From an uncultured Gemmatimonadales bacterium (GTDB lineage: Bacteria; Gemmatimonadota; Gemmatimonadetes; Gemmatimonadales; GWC2-71-9), in contig CAWFPG010000019.1 of assembly GCA_963817715.1 (NCBI GenBank), positions 41,484 to 105,483 on the forward strand: a DNA stretch of 64,000 bases. The letters run 5' to 3'. Below, piece after piece: positions 5,467 to 60,814 of this stretch. A program made the position numbers and the translations under genes. Below the pieces are notes generated by a model. That model was not told where the DNA came from, did not search any database, and was given only the letters and a program-made list of their open reading frames with translations. Position 1 is the first letter of the stretch, and the number at the start of each line of letters is the position of its first letter.

Positions 5467-6957
5467 ATGGCGAAGAACTTCAAGAACTTCATCGGCGGCC
5501 AGTGGGTCGCTCCCTCCACCGGTCGCTATTTCGAGAACCGCAACCCGGCCGACACCGGCGACCTGATCGGGCGCTTCCCGGATTCGGGCAAGGCCGACGT
5601 GACCGCCGCGGTCCGCTCGGCGAAGGCCGGCTTCGAGCAGTGGTCGCGGACCCCGGCCCCGCTGCGGGGCGACGTGCTGCGCCGCGTCGGCGACCTCATG
5701 ACCGCCCGGAAGGACGAGATCGCCGACCTGATGACCCGCGAGATGGGCAAGGTGGTGGCGGAGACCGCCGGCGACGTGCAGGAGGGCATCGACACGGCCT
5801 ACTACGCCGCCACCGAGGGACGGCGGCTGTTCGGGCACACGGTCCCGAGTGAGCTGCGGCAGAAGTTCGCGATGAGCGTGCGCCGCCCGATCGGGCCCGC
5901 GGGGCTGATCATGCCGTTCAACTTCCCGCTGGCGATCCCGACCTGGAAGGCGTTCCCGGCACTGCTCTGCGGCAACAGCATCATCATCAAGCCGTCGGAG
6001 GACGTCCCCCACACCGCGACGGTGCTGGTGGAGATCCTGCTCGAGGCGGGGCTGCCGCCCGAGGTGGTGCAGCTGGTGCATGGCGGCGGTGAGGTCGGCG
6101 CGGCGCTGGTCGCCCACAAGGACGTGCCCCTGATCTCGTTCACCGGGTCGACCGACACCGGTGCCAAGATCGGCGAGGTCTGCGGCCGGATGCACAAGCG
6201 GCTCTCGCTCGAGATGGGCGGCAAGAACGCCCAGATCGTGATGGACGATGCCGATCTCGACCTGGCGCTCGACGGCGTGCTCTGGGGCGCCTTCGGGACC
6301 ACCGGGCAGCGCTGCACGGCGACGTCGCGGCTGATCGTCCACCGCAAGGTCCACGACAAGCTGGTGAGCCGGCTGGTCGACGCCGCCGGCAAGCTGGTGC
6401 TGGGCGATGGCCGCCAGCCGCGGACCCAGGTCGGTCCGCTGATCCACGAGGCGGCCCGCGAGAAGGTCGAGCGCTACGTGGCGATCGGCCAGGAGCAGGG
6501 GGCCGAGCTGGTGCTGGGTGGCAGCCGTCCGCGCGGCCAGCGGACCCGCAACGGCTGGTTCTACCGGCCCACGGTCTTCACCAACGTCAAGCGCGGCTCA
6601 CGGCTCGCCACCGAGGAGATCTTCGGTCCGGTCCTGAGCGTGATCCGGGTGAACAGCTATGCCGACGCGGTGAAGGTCAACAACGAGGTCAAGTACGGCC
6701 TGTCGTCGGCGATCTACACCCGCGATGTCAACCGGGCGTTCCGCGCCATGGAGGACCTCCAGAACGGCATCACCTACGTCAATGCGCCGACCATCGGCGC
6801 GGAGGCGCACCTGCCGTTCGGCGGCGTGAAGCAGACCGGCAACGGGCACCGCGAAGGTGGCTGGGAAGTGTTCGAGTTCTACTCGGAGACCAAGGTCAAC
6901 TACGTCGACTTCTCCGGCACACTGCAGCGGGCACAGATCGACACGTACGACGTCTGA
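5467..6957 (+). CDS. NAD(P)-dependent aldehyde dehydrogenase
   Basis: PFNFP, IIKPSE, FTGST, LEMGGKN, GQRCTA (catalytic Cys), EEIFGPV, PFGGVKQTG. Confidence 0.95.
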   Translation: MAKNFKNFIGGQWVAPSTGRYFENRNPADTGDLIGRFPDSGKADVTAAVRSAKAGFEQWSRTPAPLRGDVLRRVGDLMTARKDEIADLMTREMGKVVAETAGDVQEGIDTAYYAATEGRRLFGHTVPSELRQKFAMSVRRPIGPAGLIMPFNFPLAIPTWKAFPALLCGNSIIIKPSEDVPHTATVLVEILLEAGLPPEVVQLVHGGGEVGAALVAHKDVPLISFTGSTDTGAKIGEVCGRMHKRLSLEMGGKNAQIVMDDADLDLALDGVLWGAFGTTGQRCTATSRLIVHRKVHDKLVSRLVDAAGKLVLGDGRQPRTQVGPLIHEAAREKVERYVAIGQEQGAELVLGGSRPRGQRTRNGWFYRPTVFTNVKRGSRLATEEIFGPVLSVIRVNSYADAVKVNNEVKYGLSSAIYTRDVNRAFRAMEDLQNGITYVNAPTIGAEAHLPFGGVKQTGNGHREGGWEVFEFYSETKVNYVDFSGTLQRAQIDTYDV

Positions 6958-7052
6958 GGACGGAGAGCAGAGAACGGAGAACGGAGAGCAGAGCACTCCA
7001 AGTGGCTCAGCGACCAATTCTCGCGTTCTCCGTTCTCCGCTCTCCGTTCTCC
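6956..7052. repeat. Inverted pair of heptamer tandem arrays (GAGAACG family)
   Basis: 6 units GAGGACG/GAGAGCA/GAGAACG at 6956-6997, a 20-nt spacer, then 5 complementary units (GTTCTCC) at 7018-7052. Confidence 0.9.
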
Positions 7053-7156
7053 GGTTCCTCCCCCCTTGCCCCCATCCGATCGCCCCGGGTATTCTCCGGC
7101 ACCTACCCACGACAGCTGTATTGCTCGGTAATGTCCACGCACGAAGAGGTTGTGCG

Positions 7157-8037: not shown

Positions 8038-8153
<116 letters not shown>

Positions 8154-8189
8154 CCGGCCGACCCTATTGCCCGGGCCGGGCCGTTCCGA

Positions 8190-9943: not shown

Positions 9944-9950
9944 ACACGAT

Positions 9951-10020
9951 GGTCGATGGTCGATGGTCGATGGTCGATGGTCGATGGTCGATGGTCGATG
10001 GTCGATGGTCGATGGACGAT
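9951..10020. repeat. Heptamer tandem array (GGTCGAT)9 + GGACGAT with degenerate tail to about 10050
   Basis: Nine perfect GGTCGAT units start 8 nt after the SpoIID stop. Confidence 0.95.
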
Positions 10021-10087
10021 GGTCATCGATGGTGGACGGTGGTCGACGATCGCCGATTCGCGAATTCGATTCCGAAGGGACCTGCGC

Positions 10088-17881: not shown

Positions 17882-18723
17882 TCCCCCCGGCGGTCGCGGT
17901 GGTTGGTGGAGGGCGCGTCGGGCTGTCGCTCGCACGCGCCCTCGCCGATTCCGGGGGAGCCGTCGCGGTGCTCTCGCGGAGCGCGCGGCCGTTGCCCGCG
18001 CCGTTGGCACCAGCCACCGTGGCCTGGGAGCCCGCACTGGCCGCCGCCGACCTGGTCATCGTCGCGGTGCCCGACGATGCCGTCGCGACGGTGGCGCTTC
18101 GGCTCCGCGACGGCGGCGCGATCGGTGCCACCCAGGTGGTGCTGCACGCCTCCGGATCGCCTCGACCGGCATGCGCTGGCTGCGCTCGAGCCGACCGGGG
18201 CGTCGCTGGGCTCGTTCCATCCGCTCCAGACGCTGCGCGATCCGGCGGGCGAGCCCGGACGCGCTGGCCGGCGCGCCGGCGATCATCGAGGGTGAGCCGC
18301 GGGCCGCTCGCCGCGGCGCGGGCGCTGGCCGAGCGGCTCGGCGATGACGCCGGTCCTCGAGCTCCCCGCCGAGGGGAAGGCGCGCTACCACGCGGCGGCG
18401 GTCTTCGCGTCGAACTACCTGGTGGTGCTTGCCGACGTGGCGGGGCGGCTGGCCCGCGGCGCCGGGCTCGAGGCCACGCCGGGCCTCTTCCTGCCGCTGA
18501 TGCGCCGGACACTGGACCATCTCGGCGGCGAGTGACCCTGCCGCGGCGCTCACCGGGCCGGTCCGCCGCGGCGACGTCGGGCACGGTCCGGGCCCACCTC
18601 GAGGCCCTCGATCCGGAGAGCCGGGCGCTCTACGCCGCGCTGGGACGCGAGGCACTGGACCTGGCAGCACGCGAGGGACTCGACCGGGACACGGTCGGGG
18701 CGATCCGGAAGCTACTCGGGTAG
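17878..18723 (+). CDS. Rossmann-like/DUF2520 domain oxidoreductase; several apparent frameshifts
   Basis: [53 protein letters not shown] pieces in different frames. Confidence 0.75.
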
Positions 18724-18811
18724 CGGCAGGCGACAGGCGACAGGCGATGGGGCCGGCTCAACGCATTGAACCGGCCCTTCTTCTTGTCGCCTGTCGCGTG
18801 TCGCCTGTCGC
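18723..18811. terminator. Bidirectional terminator-like hairpin extended by inverted heptamer arrays (GCGACAG family)
   Basis: 4x GCGACAG-like units (18723-18750), core hairpin GGGCCGG-C-TCAA-cgca-TTGA-A-CCGGCCC, TTCTTCTT, then 4x CTGTCGC-like units (18784-18811), between convergent stops. Confidence 0.8.
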
Positions 18812-18812
18812 C

Positions 18813-47582: not shown

Positions 47583-48680
47583 TCAGGTGTTGAAACGGAA
47601 GAGCATCACGTCGCCGTCCTGCACCACGTACTCCTTCCCCTCGGCCCTGGAGAGCCCCTGTTCGCGGGCTGGCTTCCAGCCGCCGACCCGCACGAAGTCG
47701 TCGTAGCCCACCGTCTCGGCGCGGATGAAGCCGCGCTCGAAGTCGGAATGGATCTCGCCGGCGGCCTCGGGCGCGCGCGCGCCGCGCCGGACGGTCCAGG
47801 CGCGGACCTCCTTCTCGCCGGCCGTGAAATAGCTCTGCAGGCCGAGCAGCCGGTAGGCGGCCCGGGCCAGGCGATCGAGTCCAGACTCGTGTACCCCGAG
47901 CGCCTCCAGGAATTCCGTCCGATCCTCGGGGGCCAGCTCGGCCAGCTCGGCCTCGACCTTGGCGGAGAAGATCACCACCTCGGCCGGTTCGCCGCTGGCA
48001 GCGATGGCGGCGCGGAGCGCCTCGACGTGGGGGTTGCCGTCGACCAGTTCGTCGTCGCGCACGTTGGCGGCGTAGAGCACCGGCTTGGCGGTGAGGAGGT
48101 TGAAGGTGCGATAGGCCGTCTGCTCCTCGCTGCTCGGCACCACGGTGCGCGCCATCCGGCCGGCGCCGAGTGCCTCGGCGAGTCGCTCCAGCAGCGCCCG
48201 CTCCAGCTTGGCCTGCGCCTCACCCGTGCGGGCGGCCCGGGTCGCCTTGTCGAGCCGCTTCTCCACCGTGGCGAGGTCGGCGAGGGCCAACTCGGTCTCG
48301 ATGATCTCCTTGTCGCGAACCGGATCGACGGCACCCATCACGTGCTGGATGTCGTCGTCGGCAAAGCAGCGCACCACGTGCACGATCGCATTGACCTCGC
48401 GGATGTTGGCGAGGAACTGGTTGCCCAGCCCTTCACCCTGCGAGGCCCCCTCGACCAGGCCGGCGATGTCGACAAACTGCACGGTCGCCGGGACGATCCG
48501 CTGGGGGGCGACGAAGCGGGCGATCGCCCCGAGTCGCTCGTCGGGCACCTCGACGACGCCGGTGTTGGGCTCGATGGTGGCGAAGGGGTAGTTGGCGACC
48601 AGCGCGCCGGCGCGGGTCAGCGCATTGAACAGGGTCGATTTGCCGACGTTCGGGAGGCCGACGATTCCGAGAGAGAGCAT
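47583..48680 (-). CDS. ychF: Redox-regulated ATPase YchF
   Basis: [45 protein letters not shown]. The ORF-track extension to 48923 is repeat-derived. Confidence 0.97.
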
Positions 48681-48683
48681 GCG

Positions 48684-48718
48684 GGTCGATGGTCGATGGT
48701 CGAGGGTCGATGGTCGAT
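48684..48718. repeat. Left inverted arm: 5 GGTCGAT-type heptamers
   Basis: GGTCGAT GGTCGAT GGTCGAG GGTCGAT GGTCGAT, 3 nt from the ychF start codon. Confidence 0.95.
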
Positions 48719-48732
48719 GAAACGTGGGGCGG

Positions 48733-48738
48733 AATCTA
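48733..48738 (-). promoter_or_regulatory. Candidate -10 box (TAGATT) for ychF
   Basis: The same TAGATT hexamer precedes rpsF (33012-33007) and tRNA-Gln (54882-54877) on the minus strand. Confidence 0.45.
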
Positions 48739-48796
48739 GTGCCGTAGCGGCGGATCCGGTTCCCCGAGGGGCCTGGTGGTCGCGCACTGTTCCGGC

Positions 48797-49156
48797 ATGG
48801 GTGATTTCCGGCGACTGGAGGTCTGGCGGGCGGCGCACCAAGCCGCCTGCGAGGTCTATCGTCTTTCGGCGAGCTGGCCGCTGGACGAGCGGTTCGGCCT
48901 GACATCCCAGATCCGTCGTGCATCCGTTTCCGTCGTCTCGAACATCGCCGAGGGTGCCGGACGGATGTCCGACCGAGAATTGTGCCGGTTCGTCCGGATC
49001 GCCCGAGGGTCGAACCAGGAGGTGCTGGCCCAGGTGCTGATCGCCGAATCGCTCGGATTCCTGGCGCCCGATGAGGTCACCACCCTGAGGCGGCGAGTCG
49101 AACGGATCGGCGCGATGCTCTCGGGGATGCTCAAGCGATTGGGGCGAACGGCCTGA
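48797..49156 (+). CDS. Four-helix-bundle protein (23S rRNA intervening-sequence protein/TIGR02436 family)
   Basis: FRRLEVW, ERFGLTSQIRRASVSVVSNIAEG, FVRIARGSNQE; 119 aa; antisense to its neighbours. Confidence 0.92.
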   Translation: MGDFRRLEVWRAAHQAACEVYRLSASWPLDERFGLTSQIRRASVSVVSNIAEGAGRMSDRELCRFVRIARGSNQEVLAQVLIAESLGFLAPDEVTTLRRRVERIGAMLSGMLKRLGRTA

Positions 49157-49168
49157 ACCGTTCGCCCC
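49141..49168. terminator. Perfect 11-bp hairpin with the four-helix-bundle stop codon in its loop
   Basis: GGGGCGAACGG-cctgaa-CCGTTCGCCCC; no U-tract. Confidence 0.6.
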
Positions 49169-49203
49169 ATCGACCACCGACCATCGACCCTAGACCATCG
49201 ACC
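49169..49203. repeat. Right inverted arm: 5 ATCGACC-type heptamers
   Basis: ATCGACC ACCGACC ATCGACC CTAGACC ATCGACC, directly abutting the hppA stop codon. Confidence 0.95.
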
Positions 49204-51264
<2,061 letters not shown>

Positions 51265-60739: not shown

Positions 60740-60814
60740 GAGAGCGGAGAGCGGAGAGCGGAGAACAGGGGCCACCCCGTTCACCGTGCTCTGTTCTCCG
60801 TTCTCCGTCCTCGG
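60740..60814. repeat. Inverted heptamer arrays (GAGAGCG/GAGAACG family)
   Basis: 3x GAGAGCG + GAGAACA, GGGG-cca-CCCC core, then TGCTCTG TTCTCCG TTCTCCG TCCTCGG. Confidence 0.88.

Follow-up and report, generated by a model that had tools for sequence, protein, structure and literature searches.

A four-helix-bundle gene sealed by inverted heptamer arrays between hppA and ychF, and the dispersed hairpin families of its genome

INTRODUCTION

Why should a gene of the protein family named after the intervening sequences (IVSs) of 23S rRNA lie between two protein genes of an operon, closed off at both ends by inverted arrays of a heptamer? The question is raised by a stretch of 64,000 nt from an uncultured Gemmatimonadales bacterium (GenBank assembly GCA_963817715.1, contig CAWFPG010000019.1, positions 41,484 to 105,483), here called the window. 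At window positions 48684-49203 a single unit spans the gap between hppA and ychF, in the order array, leader, open reading frame (ORF), hairpin, array. We refer to this unit as the cassette and to its gene as the four-helix-bundle (4HB) gene. A first-pass annotation of the window had taken the cassette for an IVS-like element in an mRNA operon, either mobile without a transposase or part of an RNA-processing system, and had seen in the other heptamer hairpins nearby the same element without cargo. We followed the gene and its heptamer through the whole genome, through relatives that keep the same junction, and into other phyla. The cassette is the sole gene-bearing member of a dispersed family of GGTCGAT hairpins, and each of the six such families in the genome has exactly one gene of this kind.

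RESULTS

Six heptamer families and six 4HB genes

In the genome assembly (3.6 Mb in 21 contigs; G000 in our comparisons), 364 arrays of period 7 reach three units or more, whereas each of periods 5, 6 and 8-11 gives 2-42. With one mismatch permitted, six unit families take in 340 of these 364: GGAGAAC (78 arrays), GGTGAAT (65), GCGACAG (62), TACGAGA (56), GGTCGAT (43) and CGATAGA (36). Array lengths run from 21 to 124 nt, variant units included, and arms are typically 3.5-6 units long. Six 4HB paralogs came out of an iterated profile search over the ORFs of all six frames, and a Pfam search of the genome returned the identical six. Checking the flanks of all paralogs, as the first-pass annotation had proposed, showed that inverted arrays bracket every one of the six, each gene having one of the six families to itself. 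Among the roughly 2,700 other genes, a sensitive scan for brackets of one family and the right polarity, set around larger inserts, gave only about 4 cases. Two of these are ordinary genes; the others are a 72-aa zinc-ribbon ORF and a 114-aa ORF without known family. Were the arms drawn at random from the array pool, the chance that six genes have six distinct families would be P ~0.013.

Dispersed families and the units of their cassettes

The dispersed hairpins of a genome match the units of its own cassettes. Three tandem copies of GGTCGAT, with at most one mismatch, matched 73 times in this genome and 0-9 times in each of 40 relatives. Three copies of GTCGTAG had no match here, and 112, 246 and 96 matches in the three genomes with GTCGTAG arms on their hppA-ychF cassette (one of these cassettes being ORF-less); a fourth genome, whose cassette at this junction has AGTCCTG/AGTCGTG arms, gave 80. 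In a 364-kb sample of genome G012, all 34 arrays belonged to two families, one for each of its two well-armed cassettes. From G010, a sample of 400 kb yielded 81 arrays in five families: two share their units with its two intact cassettes, and a third with its hppA-ychF remnant, which lacks the ORF. For the other two, GGTGAAC and GCGAGAA, G010 has no gene, and equal units stand at syntenic cassette sites (those on contigs C6 and C9 of G000) in sister genomes. This pattern is what succession of a master copy predicts: the cassette unit changes, new hairpins follow, and old families linger.

Array density was 9-20 per 100 kb in G000, G012 and G010. Among samples from other genomes of the order, that of a genome without a 4HB gene showed roughly one real array over 232 kb, that of a genome whose eight 4HB genes are all unarmed showed none over 200 kb, and that of a genome with a single armed 4HB gene showed two over 200 kb.

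The cassettes themselves keep their places. At no fewer than four sites they are syntenic within the genus: the C9 cassette (GCGACAG) is syntenic with cassettes of six other genomes, whose units are GGTGACT, CGATGAT, GGTGAAC, GAGATCG, GATGATG and GCGAGAG; the C6 cassette (GGTGAAT) with GGTGAAC and GTGACCT cassettes; and the C4 cassette (TACGAGA) with a GAGAGAA cassette, which is degenerate, and also with a gene that has no arms.

The hppA-ychF junction across relatives

We surveyed 25 related genomes that retain the hppA-ychF adjacency, and the alleles for which the first-pass annotation had proposed to look, filled, short-remnant and empty, all occur. Nine genomes, G000 included, carry an intact antisense 4HB gene with inverted arms, and nine have an empty junction of 12-36 nt. 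Five have remnants: in two the ORF is lost while arms, inner hairpin and leader are kept, and a further one retains only the 5' half of the gene, its sister genome being empty. Two more distant genomes of the order, with gaps of 371 and 121 nt, have no arrays and no 4HB match and were left unclassed. Genomes G001 and G026 form a clean filled/empty pair. The gene is syntenic at this site, but with its arrays rather than without them, so the outcome that the first-pass annotation had named as refuting its reading was not seen.

The cassette units of the nine filled genomes are GGTCGAT (here), GAAGTCG, GTCGTAG (twice), AGTCCTG, AGTCGTG, CTTGGGC plus AGTCGTG, AGTTGTG and a degenerate GACAGGT, most of them sharing a GTCG core. 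The site proteins of seven close-clade genomes form one group in the tree (Shimodaira-Hasegawa-like approximate likelihood ratio test, 86) and are only 44-50% identical to that of G000, while the adjoining end of hppA is 89-95% identical across the same genomes. From the site clade, this gap in identity, the substitution rates given below and the differences in unit, we infer that the gene is old at the site, functional and fast-evolving, with arms that change in concert. As far as comparison of the sequences can tell, the cassette is resident and vertically inherited, not recently mobile. Mobility, which had been proposed for it, is not shown: the cassette sits at the same site in nine genomes, its site proteins are one clade, and neither a target duplication nor an enzyme was found.

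In the empty-junction genomes hppA is more divergent, with 71-75% identity across its final 150 aa; strict orthology may therefore be lacking on the hppA side of the junction, though not on the ychF side. In one genome (G009, contig C280) hppA occurs as tandem paralogs, 84% and 75% identical to the query; next to ychF, the empty-junction genomes carry only the more divergent hppA type, hence the hppA side has a history of its own. At one filled junction (G022, L036) an extra short hairpin of the cassette unit is nested in the interval from the hppA-side arm to the gene's 3' end, and one arm mixes AGTCCTG and AGTCGTG.

The leader contains a motif, GGCACTAGATT in operon sense (window 48743-48733), that is retained in 14 of the 14 filled or degraded junctions. 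Its retention in the ORF-less ones suggests that it serves ychF, and its TAGATT may be an outward-facing -10 box for that gene.

Anatomy of the cassette and its protein

In the window itself (Table 1), the annotated layout of five GGTCGAT units, a 119-aa antisense ORF and five ATCGACC units within 48684-49203 was borne out, as was a match of the arms at 31 of 35 positions by eye. Two lengths shift slightly: the leader, put at about 78 nt, measures 77 nt, and the inner hairpin is present with a stem of 12 bp where 11 bp had been given. Three nucleotides separate the left array from the ychF ATG (48680-48678, minus strand), and the hppA stop codon (49204-49206) directly adjoins the right array. 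Tandem Repeats Finder (TRF) gave the left array a period of 7, 5.1 copies and 93% matches, and the right array (from 49167/49168) 80-88% matches to ATCGACC-type units. Complementarity of the arms is 89% over 37 nt, or 83% over 41 nt when GTGGGGCG/CGCCCCA is counted. The resulting stem of 35-41 bp closes the cassette fold on RNA of both strands (z -5.6 and -6.6 vs shuffles), and the 12-bp hairpin overlaps both the ORF stop codon and the start of the right arm. Scans of 48550-49350 for sigma-70 and intrinsic-terminator consensus sequences gave no match.

The ORF product exceeds the curated cut-offs of PF05635 (E 1.3e-34, 119 bits, cut-off 33.8) and TIGR02436 (E 1.6e-32, 111.9 bits, cut-off 24) and is a member of this '23S rRNA IVS protein' family. 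Its one other Pfam match is to PF22296 (bAvd), at E 7.8e-5 and 23.6 bits, under the 40-bit cut-off; no HUH/Y1 (IS200-like) transposase match was found for it. Among solved structures the closest is PDB 2GSC, of the Xanthomonas campestris protein XCC0516, deposited with five chains; the match covers residues 5-117 at E 1.9e-23. The ratio of nonsynonymous to synonymous substitution rates among orthologues of the cassette gene was 0.14-0.35 where computable, and the ORF is, on this evidence, intact and under purifying selection. Near-identical paralogs are absent, branches measuring 0.4-0.6 changes per site.

Gene-less hairpins

Among the arrays of the genome are 128 inverted pairs that are short, their spacers measuring 5-109 nt. 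All but one of them (127) have the purine-rich unit as 5' arm and its complement as 3' arm, a polarity that is true on both strands because the element is a palindrome. By crude gene calls, convergent genes flank 41% of the gene-less hairpins and divergent genes 9%, against a background of 19% for either arrangement. Their median distance to the 3' end of the neighbouring gene is 5 nt, and one quarter touch or overlap a stop codon. The spacers are locus-specific, many with a strong GC stem, GAAGGCCGG-N12-16-CCGGCCTTC, found in all six families. Because of this specificity we regard the gene-less members as heptamer arms around ordinary terminator-like stems, not as copies of one mobile sequence. 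They do share period, polarity and unit families with the cassette, and to that extent the idea of a cargo-less element stands; they are not simple deletion copies. Descent from the cassette by deletion was considered and rejected on the same ground, likeness to the leader (CCGGTTCCCCGAGGGG) being seen by eye in one copy and nothing systematic.

The GC stem is present in about one third of the short hairpins, for example at C5:623058, C11:416652 and C3:130574, and the spacers of the last two are near-identical. At window 8038-8155 a chimeric pair has a left array of GGAGAAC (8 copies) and a right array of CCATTCA, the complement of the GGTGAAT family; these arms are unable to pair, yet retain the purine-then-pyrimidine polarity.

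Arm families differ at matching sites. Arrays of G010 or G012 stand at 31 syntenic intergenic sites, and at 13 or more of these G000 has arrays too, of a different family. Two sites could be aligned through stop codon, arm, orthologous central stem and opposite arm, with GGAAGTC facing GACGATA at one and GTCGTAG facing GGAGAAC at the other. Since orthologous stems carry different arm families, the arms have been exchanged, or else written independently, about a shared terminator; neither slippage by itself nor ordinary transposition explains such same-site differences well. Two short-hairpin sites looked empty in G000, but alignment revealed a hairpin of another family at each, so there is no clean filled/empty pair for the gene-less form.

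Table 1. Features of the cassette, its neighbours and gene-less members in the window
Feature	Position	Strand	Basis or remark
ychF (GTPase), downstream operon gene	47586..48680	-	PF06071 E 1.3e-37, PF01926; ORF listing
Left arm, purine-rich: 5 GGTCGAT units (one = GGTCGAG)	48684..48719	.	TRF; part of inverted repeat I2
Leader, 77 nt	48720-48796		between left array and ORF
Conserved leader motif: gene sense AATCTAGTGCC, operon sense GGCACTAGATT	48733..48743	-	kept in 14 junctions
4HB gene, 119 aa + stop, antisense to hppA and ychF	48797..49156	+	PF05635, TIGR02436
Perfect 12-bp stem, 6-nt loop (49140-49151 / 49158-49169)	49140..49169	.	inverted repeat I11
Right arm, pyrimidine-rich: 5 ATCGACC-type units (variants ACCGACC, CTAGACC)	49168..49203	.	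TRF; inverted repeat I2
hppA (H+-translocating pyrophosphatase), upstream gene	49204..51264	-	PF03030 E 1.9e-258
Gene-less array, CGATGGT (rotation of GGTCGAT), 11 copies, same unit family as cassette	9947..10050	.	TRF; C19:51430
Gene-less hairpin, GAGAACG / complement	6956..7053	.	TRF; pair list C19:48453-48536
Gene-less hairpin, GCGACAG family, central GGCCGG...CCGGCC stem	18723..18812	.	TRF; pair list C19:60210-60295
Gene-less hairpin, GAGAGCG / CCGTTCT-type arms	60740..60812	.	TRF; pair list C19:102223-102291

Other cargo

A cassette-sized locus at C5:318131-318635, with 409 nt between arms of the GAGAACG family and a left arm of 71 nt, carries in place of a 4HB gene the 114-aa ORF mentioned above, which had no Pfam match. 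Its homologues in eight relatives are fast-evolving (29-50% identity), several of them adjoining heptamer arrays, and it may represent a second cargo family. The membrane-anchored 72-aa zinc-ribbon ORF lies at C10:98319-98616 within GCGACAG arms of the right polarity, in an insert of 242 nt.

Armed genes beyond the lineage

In Xanthomonas vasicola, a homologue of XCC0516 (82% identical) sits between accB and accC, splitting the operon (L141), with GGGAATC-type units on its left and CCCATTC-type units on its right; the arms are imperfectly complementary. More than a hundred intergenic regions of Xanthomonas contain GGGAATC repeats, which in 70-75 of these regions form convergent pairs; the repeats lie on average 28 nt past the upstream gene and were read as G-quadruplex formers, with no protein partner named (Rehm et al. 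2015, PMC4692102). When the X. vasicola/2GSC protein was used to fetch 80 loci from many phyla, 19 were armed by a loose criterion, and in 17 of the 19 the 5' arm was purine-rich. ORF-bearing 23S rRNA IVSs are described from Coxiella burnetii, Leptospira and Brucella (PMC4990558); that of C. burnetii, in helix 45, contains three GACAGAT repeats in its 28-bp stem, and RNase III cleaves it at the first of them (Warrier et al. 2016, PMC4990558). Our literature searches found no paper linking PF05635 genes to dispersed heptamer arrays.

DISCUSSION

We favor, at a probability of about 45%, the reading that the cassette and the GGTCGAT family are a resident cognate gene-repeat pair, with a logic like that of REPIN and RAYT, the architecture of an rRNA IVS, and a protein that is not an enzyme. 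The cassette arms would then be the master copy, or the specificity partner, of the family. New hairpins would be written around existing terminator stems by replication or repair enzymes of the host, from which the catalysis must come because the 4HB protein lacks an HUH/Y1 motif, and old families would persist once the unit or the gene changes. In RNA, the stem would end or insulate transcripts and would be a likely substrate of RNase III, as in rRNA IVSs, while the operon-sense CTAGATT motif would probably restart transcription of ychF. The protein itself would most likely bind about five copies of its own heptamer, possibly on the single-stranded purine-rich 5' arm, in the manner of TRAP; the fixed polarity, the post-stop position and the arms of 3.5-6 units would fit a ring protein reading the purine arm during transcription.

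Several observations weigh against this reading. The centers of the hairpins are locus-specific and orthologous between genomes while their arms differ, a poor fit to ordinary copy-and-paste transposition; no target duplication is visible in the filled/empty comparisons of the junction, and the cassette encodes no enzyme. Arrays span 3-17 units with no sharp peak at five, and the statistic of one gene per family rests mainly on one genome. The two gene-less families of G010 are as long and as pure as its families with a gene, so the protein is not needed for arrays to persist, and its candidacy as an array maintainer fails on this comparison of length and purity. The direction of cause could also be the reverse of that proposed, dispersed arrays converting the cassette arms. 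Lastly, of the 20 sequencing runs that held words from the window, nearly all are metagenomic DNA, and in the sole metatranscriptome among them only conserved parts of hppA and ychF were covered, the depth over the cassette being 0.

The same data can be arranged around a gene that has no partnership with the repeats. It may be a small selfish insert that seeks the apical region of pre-existing hairpins, whether rRNA helices or heptamer hairpins, with arrays that arise independently. Such cargo would account for the filled, degraded and empty hppA-ychF alleles, the clean pair G001/G026 among them, for gene-less hairpins far outnumbering gene-bearing ones, for genes of the family in rRNA helices elsewhere (PMC4990558), and for array families of G010 that have no gene and have not decayed. 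It would also require insertion to be rare and old, given that the same four or more sites are used across the genus and that the site proteins are of one clade. Random landing would seldom give one gene to each of six families, and the lack of near-identical paralogs tells against the account as well. Cassette unit and dispersed family change together between genomes, moreover, and arrays are absent from genomes in which all 4HB genes are unarmed. We consider the cargo account unlikely. It is harder still to credit that there is no functional link at all, the arrays being slippage-prone microsatellites beside strong intergenic hairpins and the antisense gene being bracketed for need of a terminator or insulator. 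The spread of array lengths and the variant units are as slippage predicts, many hairpins are centered on ordinary terminator-like GC stems, a few ordinary genes are bracketed too, and arrays persist without a cognate gene. Slippage cannot, however, account for the restriction to a few genome-specific unit families, for unrelated units on both arms at orthologous sites, or for purine-first polarity in all but one of the short pairs; other periods are not enriched, and the contrast between the six bracketed 4HB genes and the roughly 2,700 others would be left without a reason. We hold this account to be improbable.

Diversity-generating retroelements (DGRs) offer a further source of arrays. Recognition of a DGR target uses a hairpin or cruciform beside the target, and the cassette protein belongs to the Avd clan, with its match to bAvd, so the gene could be an Avd accessory protein left from a retroelement, the arrays having been made by reverse transcription of cassette RNA beside hairpins. 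The bAvd score lies under its cut-off, though, and there is no template/variable repeat pair near the cassette. A search for the reverse transcriptase domain PF00078 gave no match in this genome and one among the 20 relatives searched; reverse transcription is therefore excluded here, and we rejected the model for this genome, leaving it very little credence in general.

The reading of a cognate gene and repeat can be extended to the whole PF05635 family, in a form that we regard as doubtful. Its pentamers would be sequence-specific readers of bacterial heptamer repeats, each paralog reading about five of its own words, controlling post-stop hairpins (through termination, read-through or RNA stability) and, with host enzymes, writing its word around terminator stems; rRNA IVSs, the GGGAATC repeats of Xanthomonas and the short tandemly repeated repetitive (STRR) sequences of cyanobacteria would then be instances of one gene-repeat symbiosis. 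If true, this would join the origin and meaning of ORF-bearing rRNA IVSs, the role of a very large family that has a solved structure and no known role outside retroelements, and the excess of intergenic 7-base tandem repeats; control of post-stop hairpins by such proteins would be a new layer of 3'-end regulation. The genus is an unusually clean natural experiment: cassettes stay at their sites, their units vary from genome to genome, and the dispersed families track those units. It makes the idea of cognate readers directly testable and is also a model for the succession of repeat families.

Among known systems, the cassette is unlike an insertion sequence or a miniature inverted-repeat transposable element in having no transposase, no target-site duplication and, in its gene-less relatives, locus-specific hairpin centers. 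Ring proteins of the TRAP and HutP type read repeated RNA words. We use them as a working analogy only, for an oligomeric ring with one subunit per repeat that binds the 5' side of a terminator stem; the fold is unrelated, and the units of G000 are contiguous and of 7 nt, as against triplets with spacers. With Avd, a nucleic-acid-binding accessory protein of DGRs, the cassette product shares its clan, but reverse transcriptase and template/variable repeats are missing here and the bAvd score stays under its cut-off. In the REPIN-RAYT system, doublets of repetitive extragenic palindromic (REP) sequences go with a domesticated Y1 transposase, as Nunvar in 2010 and Bertels and Rainey in 2011 are said to have described. 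The parallels are one vertically inherited gene between inverted copies of its own repeat, dispersal of that repeat as hairpins after genes, several gene/repeat pairs per genome, and lineage-specific repeat populations. The differences are a four-helix bundle of about 120 aa without an HUH/Y1 nuclease motif, tandem 7-nt arrays in place of a fixed palindrome of 20-30 nt, and arms that appear to have been written around existing locus-specific stems.

The published heptamers of Xanthomonas and Nostoc (PMC4692102) and the cyanobacterial STRR repeats resemble ours in their period of 7, their intergenic position near the 3' end of the upstream gene and their many convergent pairs, and the 4HB homologue in X. 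vasicola is itself flanked by the published GGGAATC-type unit; the units of G000, by contrast, are not prone to form G-quadruplexes, and six families coexist there. The nearest likeness in plan is to the rRNA IVS itself. The cassette departs from it in lying between two protein-coding genes instead of in a 23S rRNA helix, with its ORF antisense to the host transcript. That ORF is also intact, where the Coxiella ORF is decaying and probably untranslated (PMC4990558), and the family of the cassette arms includes dozens of gene-less hairpins; the cassette is known from its sequence, whereas the RNase III cut has been seen in Coxiella. The IVS-like architecture in an mRNA operon that the first-pass annotation had recognized nevertheless holds in each of its parts: a size of about 0.43-0.52 kb, complementary ends that form a stem of about 28-40 bp, heptamers within that stem (GACAGAT in Coxiella), and in the loop an ORF of the S23p / PF05635 family.

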